Of a stretch of DNA of 43,223 nt, positions 1-12,628 are shown in pieces; positions within the stretch are counted from its first letter, which is position 1, and every line of letters begins with the position of its first letter. The notes beneath the pieces are model-generated. The model was not told where the DNA came from and made no database searches. It worked only from the letters and a program-made list of their open reading frames with translations. Source of the stretch: Chloroflexota bacterium (GTDB lineage Bacteria; Chloroflexota; Limnocylindria; QHBO01); NCBI GenBank assembly GCA_040882375.1, contig JBBEBK010000016.1, positions 1 to 43,223 on the forward strand, in the 5' to 3' direction. The translations under genes and the position numbers were made by a program.

Positions 1-576
1 ACCCGACGCTGAAGCGGGTGCCCGCTCGACGTTCTCACGGAGCCAAGCGGCGTCAAAGCAGTAGGTCCCCGCATTCACCTCGTCGATGGCGCGCGTTGCC
101 GCATCGGCGTCTCGCTCCTCCACGATCGCGGTCACCTCTCCCGCGGCGCGAACGATGCGCCCGTAGCCGGTCGGGTCGGTCACGCGAGCCGAGAGCAACG
201 CAATCTCGTGGCCGTCAGCCTGCTCGGCGATCAGCCCGGTGAAGATCTCGCCCGGAACGAGCGGAGCGTCGCCCATCGCCACGATCACCTGCCTGGTCGA
301 CGCGGGCACGCGGGCCAGGCCGATGCGCACCGCGTCAGCCGTTCCGCGCTGCGGCTCCTGCCGCGCGGTCTCGGCTCGCCCTGCGAGCCTCACCTCGACC
401 GCCTCGGCAGCGTGGCCGGTGACGACAACCAGCTGCTCAACGCCCGCCGCGGCCAGGGTGTCGAGCACGTGGTCGATCATGGTGCGCCCCGCCAGCTGGT
501 GCAGAACCTTTGGAACCCGCGAGCGCATCCGCGTTCCCTGCCCGGCGGCCAGCACGATGGCCGCGACCGTTGTCAC
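1..576 (-). CDS. glmU: Bifunctional UDP-N-acetylglucosamine pyrophosphorylase/acetyltransferase GlmU, N-terminal part (the gene runs off the window start)
   Basis: Hand translation from GTG at 576: VTTVAAIVLAAGQGTRMRSRVPKVLHQLAGRTMIDHVLD...QEPQRGTADAV...NAGTYCF. This carries the LAAGxGTRMxS/PKVLH nucleotidyltransferase signature. The frame is open to position 1, so it is absent from the ORF track. Confidence 0.75.
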   Translation of the reverse strand, partial: MTTVAAIVLAAGQGTRMRSRVPKVLHQLAGRTMIDHVLDTLAAAGVEQLVVVTGHAAEAVEVRLAGRAETARQEPQRGTADAVRIGLARVPASTRQVIVAMGDAPLVPGEIFTGLIAEQADGHEIALLSARVTDPTGYGRIVRAAGEVTAIVEERDADAATRAIDEVNAGTYCFDAAWLRENVERAPASASG

Positions 577-5415: not shown

Positions 5416-6456
5416 TCAGGACTCGGAGGGCCCGACGATCGCCTCGATGTTGGCAAGCGGCAGCGGCGCGAGCCTGCCGTCCTCGAAGCGGACCAGGCCA
5501 CTCCGCGCGGGAATGCCCGATGGAGCGGCATGCGTCTCGTCGAGGAGCGCCACCAGGACGCCCGTTCTGCCCTGGAAGGGCCTGCGATGCGCGACGACCC
5601 ATTCCCCGACCTTCGGCAGGGCGCGACGCATCGGTGGTCGGCCAGAGTCGTAGAGGTACAGGAGCCGCTCAGCTCCGACCAGGCTGGCCATCTTGCCATG
5701 CTGCTCGGTGAGCCAGCCGAACAGCTGCGGGTCGATGCTGACCTTGCCGAAGCCCTCGAGAAGCAGAATGCCGAACGATCCCGTCAGGCCGCCGGCCTGC
5801 TCGCGCCGACGCTGGATCGCCTCGAAGTCGCGCAGTTCCTTGTCGAGCACGCCTCCGAGCACGACGCCCGCGACGCCCATCGCACGCGCCCGGGTCAGGG
5901 CCTCGGCCGACGCGCGCGAGCCGCCGACCAGGATCTTGCCGGTCGCCGCGGAGTCGATCGCGGCGGCTCGCAGCTCTTCGTCCGGAGACCGCACGCCGAT
6001 CATCAGCTCGCCGTGCACGGCGTCGCCACTGCCACCGACCCCGCGCAACCGCGCGCCCGGCACCTCCACCACCAGGGCGTGCTCCTCCAGGCCTCGTATG
6101 CGTCCACGAATGTGGCCGATCACCGGCTCTTCGGGACCGAGCGGCGCGATCAGCAGCGTCCCATCGACGGCCATCGCCGCCACCACCAGCCCGGTGACCG
6201 GCGAGTGAACCTCGCGGCCGCCCGCATCGCGTGCGATGGGGTCGTCTTCGGCCACCGGGCTGCCGGGTCGCACCAGCAGAACCGCGTCCAGGTCGCTCGG
6301 TCGGCAACGCAGTGGGGCGGTCACCGGAACACGGATCGGGAGCATCGGTCCGCGCCGGAGCCCGATCACCTCGTCGGGCCGGATCTGCGCGCCCACCTCG
6401 ACCGTCAGCGTAGTGCCGCGCGGCAGCCGGATGCGATGCAGCGATGCGCCGTTCAC
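5416..6456 (-). CDS. Hypothetical soluble protein (cluster gene 7). It has a beta-rich N-terminal region and a KOW/SH3-like C-terminal segment.
   Basis: GTG at 6456 is preceded by a GGGAGG Shine-Dalgarno 6 nt upstream and forms a GTGA overlap with the upstream stop. 346 aa. C-terminal VGEWVVAHRRPFQGRTGVLVAL resembles a KOW motif. No family recognised. Confidence 0.7.
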   Translation of the reverse strand: MNGASLHRIRLPRGTTLTVEVGAQIRPDEVIGLRRGPMLPIRVPVTAPLRCRPSDLDAVLLVRPGSPVAEDDPIARDAGGREVHSPVTGLVVAAMAVDGTLLIAPLGPEEPVIGHIRGRIRGLEEHALVVEVPGARLRGVGGSGDAVHGELMIGVRSPDEELRAAAIDSAATGKILVGGSRASAEALTRARAMGVAGVVLGGVLDKELRDFEAIQRRREQAGGLTGSFGILLLEGFGKVSIDPQLFGWLTEQHGKMASLVGAERLLYLYDSGRPPMRRALPKVGEWVVAHRRPFQGRTGVLVALLDETHAAPSGIPARSGLVRFEDGRLAPLPLANIEAIVGPSES

Positions 6457-8114
6457 GCCCCGCCTCCCGGCGGCAGCGCCGCCTCGCGCCCAAGGGTGTC
6501 GCGCCACGAGGCCAGGACGGCGCGTCGGTCGTCGGCGCGCCGCGGCAGCACAAGCGGAATATCCCGTGCGTCCAGGACCAGTCCCACGGTTCCCCCGATG
6601 ACACTCGCGCGAACGCGACGCGATCGCCGAGGCCCGCCCAGCGTGGCGCCGCCGTCCAACTCGATGTCGAGGTCGGCCGCCTGCCCGCGCCCAAGCGGGA
6701 GCAGCTGGACCTGGCCCGCCCGGATCTCGACCGGTCCGACGGTCGGCCAACCGGTGCGGTGCACGGTCACCCGCATGGCAGGTTGCCCGGAGCGCCCACC
6801 CCGCGTGACCACCGCTGCGCCGAGCGGCGTCAGCAGATCGTCGCGCAGCATGCCGAGTCCCTCTGCTATCTCGTCGTCGCCGAGAGCTCCCAGCGGTGTC
6901 AGCGCCCCGGCCGCGTCGATCGCAAACTGGGTGACCCCGAGCGGGCGCACCCCATCGAGCAGCATCTGCATGGCCTGCCCCGGCGTGGGAGCGGCGGCAA
7001 CGGTCCGGCCGGCCCCGATGAGCAGGTCGATGCCATCAAGCGTCGTGCCATCCGCCGCCAGCTCGCCAAGGAGGAGCCGCGCAGCGCCGTGAACGATCGC
7101 CAGCTCTTCACCGGTCTGCGGCAGCGAGCCCGGTCGCGCGCGCAGGTTCTGAAGCGCATCGGCGACCGCCAGCTCATCAACCGCCACAGCCAGCGAATGG
7201 GCAACGCGCGATGCGCCGCTGGGAGCGGTCAGCAGCGGCGATGCAAGGCCCCCGGCGGCGAGCACGCGGCTGCGACCGTGCCCCGCCGGGTCGGCTACGA
7301 TCCAGGTGGCATACCGCGCGCCGAGATCGACCGCCGCCACGCGAAGCCCGCCGGCGCGCGCGAGCTCGGCTACCGATCGGCGCAGACCGACCGGGGCCAG
7401 TCCCCGGACCCCGGTCGGTTCGACGAGCCGTTCGATGAGGGCCTCCAGATGGCGGCGCAGCGACGTGGCGTCCTCGCGGCCGGCCGAGGGACGCGGGTTG
7501 GCGACCTGTCGCAGCACGCCGCGGTCGAAGAGCGCGGCCACGCGTTCGGTCAGTGCCGCAGAGCCTGCCCATACCACCGGCGAGCGACCACCGCCGCGTG
7601 CAGCCGCCACCAGGCCGGCCATCTCCAGTGCACCCTCGCCTCCATGGGCGTCGAAGCCGCCGGCGAGCAGCCAGGCGTCGACCTCGACCGACTGCAGGGC
7701 CGAGAGCCGTTCGGCCACGGTCCTTCCGTCGTCAGCCGTGACCGCTTCCACGACAACCCAGCCCGCGGCCTCGGCAGCTCGCCGGGCGGCGCGGCCCGAG
7801 ACCTCGGCCGATATCGCCGCGAGCGCAATCCGACCGGGACGAGTCGGCGTGTGACAGTCGATCCGGGGAGCGTCGGAGATGAGGGACGCCAGCCTGCCGG
7901 TGAGACGCGGGTCGGCCGTTCCGGCCAGTTGCGCAGCCAGCGTTCGCATCAGTTCGTCGTCGCCCCACTCGGTCGGTTGTGCGGCCTGTGCGGCCAACCT
8001 CCAGCGTCCTCGGCTGCGGCCCACGAGAGTTGCCTTGGTCCATGCCGAGCCAACGTCCACCAGGAGCGACAGCTCGGTGGTGGCCACGTCGGCGGGACGC
8101 GCTGCGTCGATCAT
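6453..8114 (-). CDS. ASKHA-fold ATPase resembling the GlmL/MutL (glutamate mutase accessory, hydantoinase-branch) family (cluster gene 6)
   Basis: 553 aa. LLVDVGSAWTKA (phosphate-1 DxGSxxTK), AWLLAGGFDAHGGE, AAVDLGARYATW and IDLLIGAGRTVAA. ATG at 8114 forms an ATGA overlap with the upstream stop. The 220-aa N-terminal part of the track ORF is Arg-rich shadow over gene 5. Confidence 0.65.
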   Translation of the reverse strand: MIDAARPADVATTELSLLVDVGSAWTKATLVGRSRGRWRLAAQAAQPTEWGDDELMRTLAAQLAGTADPRLTGRLASLISDAPRIDCHTPTRPGRIALAAISAEVSGRAARRAAEAAGWVVVEAVTADDGRTVAERLSALQSVEVDAWLLAGGFDAHGGEGALEMAGLVAAARGGGRSPVVWAGSAALTERVAALFDRGVLRQVANPRPSAGREDATSLRRHLEALIERLVEPTGVRGLAPVGLRRSVAELARAGGLRVAAVDLGARYATWIVADPAGHGRSRVLAAGGLASPLLTAPSGASRVAHSLAVAVDELAVADALQNLRARPGSLPQTGEELAIVHGAARLLLGELAADGTTLDGIDLLIGAGRTVAAAPTPGQAMQMLLDGVRPLGVTQFAIDAAGALTPLGALGDDEIAEGLGMLRDDLLTPLGAAVVTRGGRSGQPAMRVTVHRTGWPTVGPVEIRAGQVQLLPLGRGQAADLDIELDGGATLGGPRRSRRVRASVIGGTVGLVLDARDIPLVLPRRADDRRAVLASWRDTLGREAALPPGGGA

Positions 8115-8755
8115 CGGAGCAGTCCGAGCCAGTCGCCCAGGAGGAAGGCGAGCCGGTCGACCAGCAGCACGAGGCGGCTGACCAGCAGAAAGCCGAGCCA
8201 TCCGCCGATCCCACCGATAAGGAGCCAGCGACCGACCACGGTAACGCGACCCGAGAGCCGGCCGGCGGTGGTGCCGTGCGTGAAGGAGAGCACGACGAGC
8301 ACGGTGATTCCGATGGCCGCCGCGGCATCCAGCATCGACCTGCGCGCCGCGTCCGCCGGAAGAATCGCCGAGGCGATCTGCGGAAGCAGGGTTCCAAGCA
8401 CAGCACCGCCGAGCGCCAGTGCGGCGATCCCGCCGACCAGCACGCTCGTCACCGGGGCCGTGATTCGCTCGGGGAGCCACGCGGCCCCGACCATGATGGC
8501 CACAAATCCCGCAGCGGGGATCAGCGCGACGTGCGCGGCGGGATCGTCCAGGAGCGGCGAGATGAGGCGCGGCACGAGGACCTCGTCGATCGCCAGCAGG
8601 GCAAGGTACCCGGTTGCCAGCCCGGCAAGCAGGTACTGCACCAACCGGAAGACCGTCCGCGCACCGACCAGGTACGACCACACCGCGATGGTGGCGGCGG
8701 CGGCAGACCAGGTCGCGGCGATGCCGCCGAAGTCGTTGCCGAACAGTCCATTCAT
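8111..8755 (-). CDS. Hypothetical polytopic membrane protein, about 6 predicted helices (cluster gene 5)
   Basis: Long hydrophobic runs such as VQYLLAGLATGYLALLAI, AAGFVAIMVGAAW, VLVGGIAALALGGAVLGTLL and WLLIGGIGGWLGFLLV. ATG at 8755 forms an ATGA overlap with the gene 4 stop; the track start at 8770 is also possible. Confidence 0.7.
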   Translation of the reverse strand: MNGLFGNDFGGIAATWSAAAATIAVWSYLVGARTVFRLVQYLLAGLATGYLALLAIDEVLVPRLISPLLDDPAAHVALIPAAGFVAIMVGAAWLPERITAPVTSVLVGGIAALALGGAVLGTLLPQIASAILPADAARRSMLDAAAAIGITVLVVLSFTHGTTAGRLSGRVTVVGRWLLIGGIGGWLGFLLVSRLVLLVDRLAFLLGDWLGLLR

Positions 8756-9627
8756 CCGATGCGCCGCCATCCATCCGGTCGCGATCGCCGCACCAGCGGC
8801 GCCATCAGCGACTGCACCATGAGACCGAGCGCCACCAGCAGCCCGACGAGCATGGGCGTCGCGCCGACCGAGGCCGTCCGGCCTCCATCCGCCGCCGCGA
8901 CGCCGTCCGCATATGCCAGTCCTTCGGGCAGGGTGGCCAGCAGCGCACGGAGCTGGCCGGTTCGCAGATATGGGGCGAGCTCAGGTTCCAGGAACGTGGG
9001 CGCGATCGCGGCGATCGGCAGGTCGGGCACGCGAGGCAGCACCTGCTCCACCCAGCTCCGCACCGATAGATCGCCACCGGACACGACGAGGGCGAGGGCA
9101 AAGGCATCGAGATCCGCCCCGCGCGACCGAATCGCTTCGACGATCGAGCCCTCGGCACCCGACGGCACAATCCGCGCGATCGCGCCGATCAACCCCGCCT
9201 CCGCGGCGCCGGCAAACCCGAGGTCCGCGATCTCCTCGACCCCGCCGCCCAAACGCTGCAGCCGCGAGAGCTCGGCGACCGCGAGCGCTCGACCCTCGGC
9301 GGTGAAGCTGACCATGGCCAGGCGAGCACCGCGCCCCTGGAGATCGGCTATGGCGGCACGCACCACCGGGCGAATCTCCGCGTAGGTGCCCAGGTCGGCA
9401 TCAAATGCCACGAGCACGAGGGCACGCTCGGGCAGGCGGTCGAACGCGGCGTCCATGCCGTTGGCACGGGTCCGATCCGCGCTCTCCAGGCGCAGCGCGA
9501 CGCCTGCCAGGTCGGGCGGAAGGAGGGTGGCCAGCGTCAGCAGCACCAGCAGCGCCAGAACCGGCGCAGCCTCGCGGACCGCGTCAGTTACGACGTTGCG
9601 ACGGGCAGGGTGTGAACTCTCGCTCAT
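8752..9627 (-). CDS. Hypothetical bitopic membrane protein: N-terminal and C-terminal TM helices flank a soluble domain of about 200 aa (cluster gene 4)
   Basis: 291 aa. TM helices AAPVLALLVLLTLATLL and ATPMLVGLLVALGLMVQSL. GC-rich third codon positions. 3-nt gap to the gene 3 stop. Confidence 0.7.
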   Translation of the reverse strand: MSESSHPARRNVVTDAVREAAPVLALLVLLTLATLLPPDLAGVALRLESADRTRANGMDAAFDRLPERALVLVAFDADLGTYAEIRPVVRAAIADLQGRGARLAMVSFTAEGRALAVAELSRLQRLGGGVEEIADLGFAGAAEAGLIGAIARIVPSGAEGSIVEAIRSRGADLDAFALALVVSGGDLSVRSWVEQVLPRVPDLPIAAIAPTFLEPELAPYLRTGQLRALLATLPEGLAYADGVAAADGGRTASVGATPMLVGLLVALGLMVQSLMAPLVRRSRPDGWRRIG

Positions 9628-9630
9628 CGG

Positions 9631-10248
9631 TCAGTCATCGGCGCTGCCGACGCCCAGCAGGATCCTGGCCGCGCTCACCGCGACCAGGATCGCGATCCCG
9701 ATCAGGAGTCCGCGGAAGACCGCGGCCAACGGCACGTCGCGCACCCAGGCGGCCGCTGTCGCGAGCCCAGCCCCCGGGGCACCACCGATCGGCAACAGCA
9801 GCACGACCATGACGCCAGCCGCGGCGACGGTGACGGTCGCCTCGCGCGTACCGATCGACAGGCCACGCCGAACGGCGCCGAGCAGGAAGAGGAAGACGAG
9901 GGCGAAGAGCGAGCTGGCGATCGGCACGAGCAGTGCGGAGACCAGCCAATTGACCGCCGGATCGGAGCTTCCAGTCGATCCTGGGCGCAGCCCGGCCACG
10001 AGGATCAGCCCCATGCCTCCGACGAGCGTGACTGCCCCCCATCGGTCAGGGCCGCCTCGCGCCAGGTCGCGGAGGTGATGGGCGCCCAGCGTGGCTGCCC
10101 CGCCGACTGCGGCTGCCGCGGCCAGCAGGATCAGCAGTTCGACCAGGCCCCCCGCCAGCAGTTCGAGTGACGGGTTGAGGATGAGCAGATCGAGCAGCAG
10201 AATTGTGCCGGTGGCAAGCGCCAGGCCCGCGGTCAGGGATCGACGCAT
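9631..10248 (-). CDS. Hypothetical polytopic membrane protein, about 5-6 predicted helices (cluster gene 3)
   Basis: 205 aa, almost entirely hydrophobic segments such as GLALATGTILLLDLLIL, LLILLAAAAAVGGAATL, LVPIASSLFALVFLFLLGA and LLIGIAILVAVSAARILL. 4-nt gap to the gene 2 stop. Confidence 0.7.
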   Translation of the reverse strand: MRRSLTAGLALATGTILLLDLLILNPSLELLAGGLVELLILLAAAAAVGGAATLGAHHLRDLARGGPDRWGAVTLVGGMGLILVAGLRPGSTGSSDPAVNWLVSALLVPIASSLFALVFLFLLGAVRRGLSIGTREATVTVAAAGVMVVLLLPIGGAPGAGLATAAAWVRDVPLAAVFRGLLIGIAILVAVSAARILLGVGSADD

Positions 10249-10252
10249 CAGC

Positions 10253-11095
10253 TCAGCGACTCGTCAGAAAGCCGGCCGGATCGGGGGCTCCGGCTGCCAC
10301 CGCCAGCGATGCAATCAGGATCACCGCAATGGCGGTCCACAGGAGGCGGTTCGCGGCATGCACCGCGAGTCGCGCGTCGTGGCTGCCCGCGAGATCGGCG
10401 GGCGCCTGGAAGAGCTCCGGCCCGATCATCACGCCGTCCGCCTCGAGCAGCGGACCGACCGCCTGCGACATCGCCGCCGTGCCACCGATCCCCCACGACG
10501 ATGGGGCGAGAAGTCCTCCGAGCACCAGCATGCCCTCCTCGGCGAGGCCGCCTGCCACGACGGCAACCCCATGGTCCCCGGGGAGGGCCATCGCGCTCGC
10601 GCCGGCGACGGGCCGCCCCTCTCCGACGAATTCGACCGATGAGTTCACCGCCCGCTCCGGTGTGTTTGTGCGGCGATGGGCATCGATGAGCACACCCTCG
10701 GCGAGCAGCGCCGCGATCGGATCGTTGGTGATTACCCGGAGCGGGACACCGGCTCGTGCTGCTGCGCGTGCGACGTGCGCGAGGATGGGGAGCGCCGCCA
10801 CCGTCTGGAGACGATCGAGTGCTCCCGTGGCGCGGGTGATCCCCGCGCTGCCGATGGAGACGATGGCGGAGGTGCCCGACTCGGCGGCCCGTGCCATGGC
10901 ATGCCCAACCGCGGCGAGCCGGCCGAGGTCCCGCCCCGCCCATCGAGCGCGTGGACGAGCGACGAGCGAGAGGAGCACCAGCGGGACGAGCAGCAGGGCG
11001 ATCGTCGAGACCGGCCCGAGGCGCATGGAGGAGTCCTCCATCGCACCCGCGATGAGCCCCACCAGCCAGGCAGCGAACTCGCCAATATTCGGCAT
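10253..11095 (-). CDS. Hypothetical membrane protein: two N-terminal helices and one C-terminal helix flank a soluble Ala/Gly-rich domain (cluster gene 2)
   Basis: 280 aa. FAAWLVGLIAGAM, VSTIALLLVPLVLLSLVA and the C-terminal LLWTAIAVILIASLAVAAGA. The AGGAAG Shine-Dalgarno lies 5 nt upstream of the ATG. The ATG directly abuts the gene 1 TAG (TAGATG). Confidence 0.7.
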   Translation of the reverse strand: MPNIGEFAAWLVGLIAGAMEDSSMRLGPVSTIALLLVPLVLLSLVARPRARWAGRDLGRLAAVGHAMARAAESGTSAIVSIGSAGITRATGALDRLQTVAALPILAHVARAAARAGVPLRVITNDPIAALLAEGVLIDAHRRTNTPERAVNSSVEFVGEGRPVAGASAMALPGDHGVAVVAGGLAEEGMLVLGGLLAPSSWGIGGTAAMSQAVGPLLEADGVMIGPELFQAPADLAGSHDARLAVHAANRLLWTAIAVILIASLAVAAGAPDPAGFLTSR

Positions 11096-11446
11096 CTAGG
11101 CTTCCTGCTCGCCGGGCCCGCTACTGGGCGCGGCGCTGGACGCGGTGCGGTGCGTCGCGAGCCGCCCGGCCAGCCGGTCGTAGGCCGCCGAGTCGGCTCC
11201 GGCGGCGACCAGTCGGTCGAGGCGCCACCTGCCCAGCAGCGGGCCGGCGAAGGGCGCCAGAAAGATCCCCGCCAGGCGGAGGATCGGCAGGAGCGGGCGA
11301 TGCGCATCGAGCAGGATGGCGGCCGGGGCGGCCAGCCCGCGTTGCGCGAGGTCGCGAGAAATCGACGCGAGCGCTTCGTCGCGCCCGGGGTCCATCGTCG
11401 GCGCTGACGATCTGGCTTGCGGGTCGGATTGCTTCGGGTCAGGCAT
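11096..11446 (-). CDS. Small hypothetical protein with one hydrophobic helix (cluster gene 1)
   Basis: 116-aa ORF. The first 17 codons have AT-rich third positions, whereas codons after the ATG at 11395 (MDPGRDEAL...) are GC3-rich. The real start is therefore probably 11395 (99 aa). Helix: LLPILRLAGIFLAPFAGPLL. Confidence 0.45.
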   Translation of the reverse strand: MPDPKQSDPQARSSAPTMDPGRDEALASISRDLAQRGLAAPAAILLDAHRPLLPILRLAGIFLAPFAGPLLGRWRLDRLVAAGADSAAYDRLAGRLATHRTASSAAPSSGPGEQEA

Positions 11447-11473
11447 GGTCGATTGGTCGCTCGCTCGACGACC

Positions 11474-12628
11474 TCACCCGGCGTCCGCGGTCACCTCCGG
11501 TAGATGCACGCGCGGGAGGCGGTCGCGGAGGGCGGTCGTTACTTCGTAGTTGATGGTGCGTCGCTCGGCCGCGACCTCATCGGCGCTGATGCGGGCGTTC
11601 AACTGCTCGCCGATCAGGACGAACTCGTCGTCGTAGGTTACATCATGGAGATCGCCGAGATCGACGGTGATGCCGTCCATGCTGACCGCTCCGACGATCG
11701 GACGAACCGTGCCTCGCACCAGGACGCGGCCGTTGTTGGCGTGCGCGCGTGGCCAGCCGTCGCCGTAACCGATCCCGAGGGTGGCGATCCGCGTTGCTCG
11801 CTCGGCGCGGTATCGAAGCCCGTACCCGATCGCCGCTCCCGCCGGCAGGTCATAGACACGCAGCGGCAATGCTCGCAGCGACAGGATCGGGCGGAGGCCA
11901 TGGTCGCTTGATGCTGCCCACGCGGGGAGCATGCCGTAGAGCCCGAGCCCTGGGCGGATGGCGTCGGCGAACGGAGCGGCGTCGGCCAGCAGGCCGCCCG
12001 TCCCGGCGACGTGGACGAGCCCGGGATCGATGCCGGCCGATCGCATGGCATCAAGCGCCTGGGCGAGCCGAAGCAGCTGCACATCGGTGTAGGCGTCGTC
12101 CTCGCCGGGAACGGCCAGGTGGCTCATCGTTCCGACGAGGTGCAGGTGTCGACTGCGCGCCACGAGCAGCGCCAACTCGACCGCGGCCGCGGGCTCGCTC
12201 CCCTGTCGCCCGAGGCCGGAGTCCACCTTGAGATGGACCGATGCCCGTGCGCCCACGTCGGCCGCCGCGCGTGCCAGCAGTTCGATGCCGGGGCGGTCAT
12301 ACACGATCGCCTCGAGGCTCGCGGCGACCGCGGCCGCGGCCTCCGGCGCGCCAAGGCCCCACAAGACCAGGATCGGGACGCTGATGCCGGCATCGCGCAG
12401 CGCGATCCCTTCACCCAGCGTGGCGACGGCGAGGCGCTCGACCCCATGGCGAACCAGGGTGCGGCTCACCTCGATTGCTCCGTGGCCATAGGCGTTCGCC
12501 TTGACCACCGCGATCATCTCGCGACCGCTCCCCGCGCGCCGGCGGAGCTGCGCCAGGTTCTCGACCAGGGCTGAGTGATCGATCTCGATCCACGCGCGAT
12601 GCGGGCTGCGTGCCGCGTAGGTGGTCAT
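11474..12628 (-). CDS. alr: Alanine racemase
   Basis: 384 aa with the PLP-lysine motif AVVKANAYGHGA and a typical C-terminal beta domain. ATGA overlap with the nnrD stop. Confidence 0.93.
   Translation of the reverse strand: MTTYAARSPHRAWIEIDHSALVENLAQLRRRAGSGREMIAVVKANAYGHGAIEVSRTLVRHGVERLAVATLGEGIALRDAGISVPILVLWGLGAPEAAAAVAASLEAIVYDRPGIELLARAAADVGARASVHLKVDSGLGRQGSEPAAAVELALLVARSRHLHLVGTMSHLAVPGEDDAYTDVQLLRLAQALDAMRSAGIDPGLVHVAGTGGLLADAAPFADAIRPGLGLYGMLPAWAASSDHGLRPILSLRALPLRVYDLPAGAAIGYGLRYRAERATRIATLGIGYGDGWPRAHANNGRVLVRGTVRPIVGAVSMDGITVDLGDLHDVTYDDEFVLIGEQLNARISADEVAAERRTINYEVTTALRDRLPRVHLPEVTADAG

Follow-up and report, generated by a model that had tools for sequence, protein, structure and literature searches.

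The stretch of DNA analysed here, hereafter the window, is the 43,223-nucleotide (nt) Limnocylindria contig JBBEBK010000016.1 (assembly GCA_040882375.1) from a Chloroflexota bacterium; taxon labels of metagenome-assembled genomes (MAGs), here and below, may be wrong. Its minus strand carries a block of seven consecutive open reading frames (ORFs), g1 to g7, in which a divergent MutL/GlmL-family ATPase of the ASKHA fold is accompanied by a soluble partner and a set of membrane proteins. The first gene, g1 (11096-11446), encodes a small helical protein of 116 amino acids (aa), an ORF with homologues detected by hidden Markov model (HMM). It is followed by g2 (10253-11095), a 280-aa DUF6754 protein assigned through PF20539, and by three ORFs classified by a topology census, namely g3 (9631-10248), a polytopic membrane protein of 205 aa with six transmembrane (TM) helices, g4 (8752-9627), a bitopic protein of 291 aa, and g5 (8111-8755), a polytopic membrane protein of 214 aa with about six TM helices. 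The last two genes are g6 (6453-8114), the 553-aa ATPase identified by PF13941, and g7 (5416-6456), the soluble g6 partner of 346 aa, described from an AlphaFold2 (AF2) model, Foldseek matches and a family census.

A preliminary description, made from the letters of this DNA alone, had read the block as one translationally coupled unit, and its coordinates proved exact, all seven genes being in frame with zero internal stops. The junctions were likewise as given there: g1 and g2 adjoin with 0 nt between them (TAG then ATG), g2 and g3 are separated by 4 nt and g3 and g4 by 3 nt, while g4/g5 and g5/g6 overlap through ATGA and g6/g7 through GTGA. The start codons of g2, g5, g6 and g7 agree with the lengths of gene-called homologues (280, 214, 553 and 346 aa). 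The start of g1 is uncertain, its first ~25 aa not being conserved, and M18 of the translation is an alternative start. Furthermore, the GC content at third codon positions (GC3) is 0.80-0.86 in the block (0.51-0.61 at second positions) and 0.82-0.91 in the neighbouring genes, so that the third positions are indeed as GC-rich as around the block, in a window of ~70% GC.

Co-occurrence and linkage of the genes outside this genome had been set beforehand as a test, and both were found to be strong across classes and phyla, with synteny in Limnocylindria and Anaerolineae and all seven families in a Planctomycetota MAG and an FCB-like contig; the seven genes form one conserved unit. The closest protein relatives come from Chloroflexota MAGs, several of which bear the name Candidatus Limnocylindria. 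In a 65%-identical relative (L001), the seven genes are kept between alr, joined there by a macro-domain gene, and tsaE, and in a 33%-identical relative (L004) the order is kept in another neighbourhood. By scanning one genome per species with the g6 C-terminal motif G[ILV][VI][IV]D[AT]RGRP, at least 600 motif matches were obtained, at least 576 of them confirmed relatives, and the loci of the best 80 scan matches, all from Anaerolineae, were mapped by family HMMs. Among these 80 loci, 57 have the exact order g1-g7 and 6 keep the order with one gene split (63/80 together); in 14 the block is interrupted by a contig end, and in 3 a component went undetected. In the Planctomycetota MAG and the FCB-like contig (loci L087 and L089), the seven families were detected with HMM E-values of 1e-17 to 1e-83. 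Both loci are arranged as g1-g6-g7-g2-g3-g4-g5, and the FCB-like contig has g6 and g7 fused. Such g6-g7 fusions, of ~1000 aa, occur in several lineages including Ozemobacteraceae (proteins P0278, P0315 and P0349). This comparative sequence evidence shows the block to be an operon that is inherited vertically and encodes a system of several proteins.

The earlier view that the block is resident rather than recently acquired is upheld by the synteny across Limnocylindria and Anaerolineae, by the neighbour-like GC3 and by the lack of repeats, only short chance matches having been seen around the block. PADLOC defence-system models gave zero matches, a PHROGs scan gave a single marginal phage-family match and phage records yielded no relative of the block proteins, so that the block was assigned neither to anti-phage defence nor to mobile elements.

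Judged from gene content, the unit is built of two modules, a cytoplasmic core of g1, g6 and g7 and a separable membrane cassette of g2-g5, because core-only loci exist in L092, in Bacillota and in L093. The cassette is positioned between g1 and g6 in Chloroflexota and after g7 elsewhere, and in loci that lack the cassette or have it downstream, g1 immediately precedes g6. For instance, L092 (ENA ERZ25039500, contig_24246; 8637-11699) is a high-GC relative with the matching array from cdaA to alr and from tsaE to glmU, in which the alr-tsaE slot holds only g1 (105 aa), g6 (540 aa) and g7 (359 aa), without g2-g5, and g7 overlaps tsaE by 4 nt. In addition, Clostridium sp. 'deep sea' and a Bacillota MAG possess g6, a g7 of 448-451 aa and a membrane protein of 132-139 aa without g2-g5, and a 3.5-Mb Chloroflexota contig (L093) has the g6+g7 pair alone. 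Since the core occurs without the cassette in L092 and in the two Bacillota loci, the ATPase does not appear to be an obligate motor of g2-g5.

Several loci with a core or a fusion display additional features. The Bacillota MAG GCA_049323415.1 (L086, 4376-15789) encodes two MutL-family paralogues, one of which carries a peptidase M1 domain at its N-terminus (1332 aa); behind the two lie genes for a g7-like protein of 451 aa and a membrane protein of 132 aa. In L093 (1-5406 and 9001-15469), the g6+g7 pair is located 3.6 kb from mreB-mreC-mreD-pbp2-rodA, which are on the other strand, and directly after the pair comes a 1031-aa Pro/Thr-rich repeat protein. In the Ozemobacteraceae MAG GCA_964597625.1 (L003, 1083-5347), the g6-g7 fusion measures 1003 aa, with g5- and g1-like genes before it and a Wzz/GNVR gene after it, overlapping by 4 nt.

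The ASKHA-fold ATPase predicted for g6 was recovered as a match to Pfam MutL (PF13941, Actin_ATPase clan) at 87 bits (E=1.6e-24), above the gathering threshold of 27 bits. As the match spans mainly the N-terminal half, g6 is considered a divergent MutL member, and weak Hydantoinase_A and Hydant_A_N matches place it in the hydantoinase/GlmL branch. Motif mapping located the phosphate-1 motif DVGSAWT at 8037-8057 and the phosphate-2 motif DLGARYAT at 7305-7328, both on the minus strand; the phosphate residues D20xG22SxxT26 and D263xG265AxxxT270 are present and conserved family-wide, and ATP binding by g6 is plausible. The protein ends in a family-specific beta-rich extension of ~110 aa (6456-6797, minus strand) containing the motif GGTVGLVLDARDIPL at 6552-6596, for which the family consensus is GG..G.VIDARGRP. 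This extension is absent from canonical GlmLs, and bona fide GlmLs align to g6 residues ~24-490 only. At E<1e-3, the relatives of g6 number 926 representative clusters. The g6 of the window departs from the family at 12 positions with at least 95% conservation in the Anaerolineae, Planctomycetota, FCB-like and Bacillota relatives, the changes including AGN to AGS, RWL to HSL and DARGRP to DARDIP, and the Limnocylindria g6 lineage appears to be fast-evolving or functionally shifted. PDB sequence searches with g6, with the g6 family profile and with a profile of its C-terminal domain found no informative relative.

The product of g7 is the predicted obligate soluble partner of g6. Its AF2 model (pLDDT 87), together with Foldseek and the family census, resolves an N-terminal barrel-sandwich hybrid (BSH) region (6061-6456), a central alpha/beta domain (5647-6060) and a C-terminal KOW/Tudor-like barrel (5434-5619), all on the minus strand. 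Foldseek matches are at domain level only and comprise NusG DII and KOW, MccF and the pyruvate kinase C-terminal domain. The window g7 has no Pfam match, and among 56 family members the weak Pfam matches are RnfC_N in 35, KOW in 20 and NQRA_N in 15. Against the PDB, the g7 profile gave the Spt5/NusG KOW domain and the NqrA N-terminus (E~0.05), both weak, and the g7 sequence gave no informative relative. A PEP-utiliser-type swivelling domain was considered for the central region in view of the pyruvate kinase match and a similar Gly-rich pattern, and is unsupported, PF00391 being found in 0/56 members. Residues ~135-150 of g7 (window 5980-6010; family consensus ALIQGVWGNG) resemble the CW_7 peptidoglycan-binding repeat of Cpl-7 lysozyme (PDB 5i8l). 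With E~1 per repeat, a whole-chain value of 2e-7 that arises through three occurrences, and a beta-strand at this position in the model, the resemblance of LIQGVWGNG to CW_7 is probably due to chance.

As to the remaining five proteins, the preliminary description had recognised no characterised family. This was found to be correct for g1, g3, g4 and g5, which belong to no Pfam family, and for g2 it is correct with the qualification that the protein falls in DUF6754, a family without an assigned function. The small size of g1 was confirmed, and the single helix attributed to it was not, the protein being weakly hydrophobic and 60/70 homologues lying below the TM threshold. HMM homologues of g1 occur at 71 loci, in L087 and L089 (E 1e-17 to 1e-20) and in L092 (E 1.7e-7). 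The topologies proposed for the cassette are retained: g2 and g4 are bitopic proteins with two terminal TM helices each, and g3 and g5, for which five to six helices had been suggested, have about six. By BLASTP and hhalign, neither g2 and g4 nor g3 and g5 are paralogues. A census of weak Pfam matches over 70 g4 domains and 114 g1, g3 and g5 sequences gave only noise, and PDB profile searches with the g2 and g4 families gave no informative relative.

The assignment of g2 to DUF6754 (PF20539) is based on a match of 46.8 bits (E=2.7e-12; threshold 27 bits) over model positions 17-244 of 257, and g2 orthologues in Anaerolineae, Planctomycetota and FCB-like loci are annotated with the same family. 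The 405 relatives of g2 include Limnocylindria proteins that are all ~280 aa long. Between its two TM helices, g2 holds a Rossmann-like alpha/beta domain (~10376-10942), for which hydropathy and a positive-inside census predict an N-out topology with the domain inside in 65/68 homologues. Foldseek with a low-confidence model gave only generic Rossmann-like matches (best E 7e-3), and E72, G74, G82, G182, E187 and G225 are invariant. For g3, six TM helices are predicted in 62/71 homologues and an N-in orientation in 65/71; homologues in L087 and L089 were detected at E 1e-44 to 1e-51, the conserved residues are P109, R179-G180, G184 and R195, and the protein has no cysteine. In g4, which is predicted to be N-in and C-in, a ~205-aa alpha/beta domain (~8872-9492) would be extracytoplasmic in 63/71 homologues, and E84, W192, E194 and Q195 are invariant across 70 sequences. 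Homologues of g5 are present in L003, L004, L087 and L089, with conservation of T22, S27-Y28, R37, G45, the motif G108...G117...G121-T122..P125-Q126 and R201.

In Anaerolineae, the system is extended in several ways. The g4 proteins are 450-1360 aa long and have gained a Zn ribbon at the N-terminus together with a long acidic tail, both in keeping with the predicted N-in orientation; the tails (e.g., L004:4914-8051, L010:5163-8297 and L058:6335-8230) contain 2-8 copies of [DE][LI]PDW[LIV] among hundreds of acidic residues. Motifs of this kind resemble short peptides that bind ASKHA proteins, such as the FtsZ C-terminal peptide. Binding of these PDWL repeats to g6 at the positions diverged in the window was considered and discarded, as the Planctomycetota and FCB-like loci combine short, repeat-free g4 proteins with canonical g6 residues. 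Furthermore, an eighth gene, g8, absent from the window, directly follows g7 in 75 Anaerolineae loci (e.g., L004:11561-12217 and L025:5478-6062). It encodes a protein of ~194 aa comprising an acidic N-terminal tail, a TM helix, a Thr/Pro-rich spacer, an LPxTG motif, a hydrophobic stretch and a basic tail, the sortase-type LPxTG wall-sorting signal being present in 64/79 copies. No TLxTC sortase candidate was found within 9 kb of g8.

The block of the window is embedded in a long row of housekeeping genes, being preceded by cdaA, ybbR, glmM, glmS, acpS, nnrD and alr and followed by tsaE, tsaB, rimI, tsaD, ksgA, ispE, ridA (594-971) and part of glmU, so that the last two occupy the left end of the window. 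The partial glmU (1-576, minus strand), named as a neighbour in the preliminary description, encodes the N-terminal 193 aa. Tight packing continues past the block, with 27 nt from the alr stop to the g1 start and 25 nt from the g7 stop to the tsaE ATG, and between window positions 2500 and 16500 no promoter or terminator signal above chance was detected; given both, the block is regarded here as part of a longer co-directional housekeeping array. No Rfam family, riboswitch or other RNA leader was found in the window or in 7 Anaerolineae loci. The envelope-precursor neighbourhood is confined to the Limnocylindria-like loci (the window, L001 and L092), the exception being PGM/PMM at 35 Anaerolineae loci. 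Flanks in Anaerolineae vary otherwise, with MeaB and a B12-binding subunit at 16 loci and PFOR or PRPP synthase at others. At those 16 loci (e.g., L050:3509-3919 and L021:2240-3256), the B12-binding small subunit and MeaB are located immediately upstream of g1, in divergent orientation; the subunit is 27-30% identical to GlmS/MutS, is restricted to a single subclade and is not accompanied by GlmE.

The reading that we favour, to which a probability of roughly one in three is given, is that of a trans-membrane switch in which g6/g7 docks on the cassette and acts on the envelope through g4. A chaperone or switch role has been proposed in the literature for GlmL-type and related ASKHA accessory proteins. 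Herein, g6 and g7 would form an ATP-dependent conformational switch or chaperone, unlike the nucleotide-binding domain of a transporter. This switch would dock on the cassette from the cytoplasmic side, the g2 domain being the most plausible site. Docking would control or assemble the outward-facing g4 domain, and it is this domain that would act on the cell envelope. In Anaerolineae, the acidic PDWL tail of g4 may provide multivalent docking sites, and g8 would have been added with its membrane anchor, Thr/Pro-rich spacer and LPxTG signal. An envelope role of the operon is plausible, the window block lying among cdaA, glmM, glmS and alr and PGM/PMM adjoining 35 Anaerolineae loci. The ATP-driven machine at the envelope that was suggested at the outset is thereby kept in part: the predicted outward position of g4, the LPxTG signal of g8 and the Wzz/GNVR gene after one fusion speak for it, and the existence of the core without the cassette speaks against a strict machine.

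In broader terms, the genes may tentatively be taken to encode an undescribed ancient trans-membrane apparatus, in which a GlmL-type ATPase and its BSH/KOW partner couple ATP turnover to an outward, enzyme-like g4. Such an apparatus would possibly span Chloroflexota, Planctomycetota and FCB-like lineages, with reduced forms in Bacillota and Ozemobacteraceae, and in Anaerolineae the coupling might reach the LPxTG protein. It is conceivable, if doubtful, that this constitutes a new class of envelope-biogenesis or envelope-maintenance machine, none of whose components is characterised. Literature on DUF6754, PF13941, TIGR01319 and GlmL with ASKHA yielded nothing relevant, and to the extent that these tools can tell, the complete system is undescribed.

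Several points weigh against the proposed switch. Every mechanistic step is one that we infer, and the chaperone role of GlmL on which the analogy draws is itself no more than a proposal in the literature. The topologies derive from simple hydropathy and a positive-inside count, and g2, the presumed docking partner, was modelled by AF2 with low confidence (pLDDT 57), beta and alpha segments alternating in the model. The window g6, with changes at 12 near-invariant positions that extend to the GRP motif of its C-terminus, may differ in its mode of action from the rest of the family. In addition, the primary client may be something other than g2-g5, since the alr-tsaE slot of L092 contains the core alone, and the genomic context gives little functional direction because the flanking genes differ between lineages.

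Among the alternatives, a membrane translocase or transporter would use g3 and g5 as a channel and g2 and g4 as accessory proteins, with g6/g7 supplying ASKHA-driven energy in place of a P-loop ATPase. The conserved Gly-rich and polar motifs in the hydrophobic segments of the ~200-aa proteins g3 and g5 would suit this, as would the tight coupling of the membrane genes to the ATPase gene and a stoichiometric gene set conserved across phyla, and the adjacent LPxTG protein could be its cargo. It is nevertheless unlikely, because g3 and g5 match no transporter family (114 sequences scanned), the ATPase core exists without the membrane genes and neither a substrate-binding protein nor a riboswitch is linked; moreover, no transporter is known to be energised by an ASKHA or hydantoinase-type ATPase. 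Quite unlikely, too, is a cytoskeletal or positioning system in which g6 polymerises like actin and is tethered by g2 or g4, the PDWL tail serving as a MamJ-like linker. Membership of g6 in the actin/ASKHA clan, the RodZ-like architecture of g4 (cytoplasmic Zn ribbon, TM helix, outside domain), the likeness of the PDWL motifs to ASKHA-binding peptides and the mreBCD-pbp2-rodA genes 3.6 kb from the pair in L093 are all compatible with it. Yet g6 belongs to the hydantoinase/GlmL branch, in which neither filaments nor polymerisation are known, the PDWL repeats are found in Anaerolineae only and do not covary with g6 residues, and the MreB neighbourhood was seen once only.

A B12 cofactor or enzyme-reactivation chaperone like GlmL, DdrA or EutA, with a cytoplasmic client enzyme encoded elsewhere and the membrane proteins as anchor or regulator, would account for the kinship of g6 with GlmL, for the B12-binding subunit and MeaB upstream of 16 Anaerolineae loci and for a core that exists without membrane genes. 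This is considered very unlikely, given that no glutamate mutase E subunit or methylaspartase occurs in the window and 91 related loci, that the B12 neighbours are confined to one subclade, that no cobalamin riboswitch was found in the window and 7 Anaerolineae loci, and that g6 reaches 34 bits where the GlmL cutoff is 475; what is conserved beside g6 is g7 with the membrane cassette, and not a mutase. Finally, the genes might form no functional unit at all, being unrelated genes packed tightly in a compact high-GC genome or a recent island. Equally tight packing of the housekeeping neighbours and the lack of a detectable operon-specific promoter or terminator would agree with that, whereas the gene set and its order are kept in different classes and phyla, g6-g7 fusions occur, GC3 is neighbour-like and repeats, integrase and PADLOC hits are lacking, which makes this explanation scarcely credible.

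The interest of the seven-gene system lies in how little of it is covered by existing knowledge. Six of the proteins belong to no family that has been characterised, and the remaining one is only distantly related to an accessory protein with an unproven role, although the set has been kept together across very early-diverged bacterial lineages and in Limnocylindria stands amid core housekeeping genes. Conservation of this breadth without an assigned function marks a gap in bacterial cell biology. If the core does act through the cassette on the envelope, a new type of ASKHA-driven membrane apparatus would be added, providing a first functional handle on DUF6754 and on the large share of the MutL family that lies outside GlmL (926 representative clusters). 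The modularity of the system, with a core that occurs with or without the cassette and natural g6-g7 fusions, makes the question experimentally tractable.

A confident match of any component to a characterised complex or transporter would have contradicted the preliminary description; none was obtained, and comparison with known systems is one of partial likenesses. No P-loop or permease family match was obtained in the seven proteins, so that they are not assigned to ABC or other P-loop-driven transporters. The N-terminus of g7 resembles the barrel-sandwich domain of NqrA and RnfC, the peripheral subunits of Na+-NQR and Rnf; an alpha/beta domain and then a small beta-barrel come after it, and six-TM proteins of ~200 aa are encoded alongside. 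In contrast to these enzymes, there is no flavin, NADH or Fe-S signature, the last domain of g7 is KOW instead of SLBB and g3 is Cys-free; g3 and g5 showed no match to Rnf-Nqr Pfam families, NqrA was not among the 50 Foldseek matches listed for the whole g7 model, and the set does not belong to Rnf/Na+-NQR. With Wzz/PCP proteins, g4 shares the predicted topology (N-in, outside domain, C-in), and a true Wzz/GNVR gene follows the Ozemobacteraceae g6-g7 fusion; however, g4 is alpha/beta and not a coiled coil, no Wzz (PF02706) or GNVR match to g4 occurs in 70 family members, and the cluster has no conserved polymerase, flippase or glycosyltransferase.

Other likenesses concern actin-fold proteins at the membrane. 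In the PilM-PilN-PilO and GspL-GspM alignment subcomplexes of the type IV pilus and type II secretion system, an actin-fold cytoplasmic protein is likewise found beside bitopic proteins with domains on both membrane faces. Pfam and NCBIfam-type scans of g1-g7 and the conserved gene set do not place the block among these subcomplexes: g6 lacks a PilM/FtsA-type Pfam match and is of the hydantoinase/GlmL branch, g2 and g4 have two TM helices each instead of one, and the conserved set is without secretin, pilin or hexameric secretion ATPase. For MreB-RodZ, MamK-MamJ and FtsA-FtsN, the comparison involves the Anaerolineae g4, whose Zn ribbon, TM helix and outside domain recall RodZ and whose acidic repeat tail recalls MamJ, but no sequence relationship was found and the window g4 has no tail.

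The closest resemblance in sequence is to GlmL/MutL, the accessory protein of coenzyme-B12-dependent glutamate (methylaspartate) mutase, with which g6 shares the ASKHA core, a PF13941 match above threshold and both phosphate motifs. Identity to a bona fide GlmL is 22%, over the N-terminal ~210 residues only, and g6 scores far below the GlmL-specific cutoffs, with 33.8 bits against 475 for the NF040745 equivalog (residues 17-236 only) and 29 bits against 204 for the TIGR01319 subfamily, under which some distant g6 relatives are labelled by JGI. Nor is the neighbourhood that of GlmL, whose gene sits between or beside those of glutamate mutase subunits S and E, usually together with methylaspartase: when the P. 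acidaminophilum proteins GlmS, GlmE and methylaspartase were used as tblastn queries, the window gave no match at E<=0.01. By these comparisons, g6 is not GlmL: its conserved partners are g7 and the membrane proteins, and it carries a ~110-aa C-terminal extension of its own.

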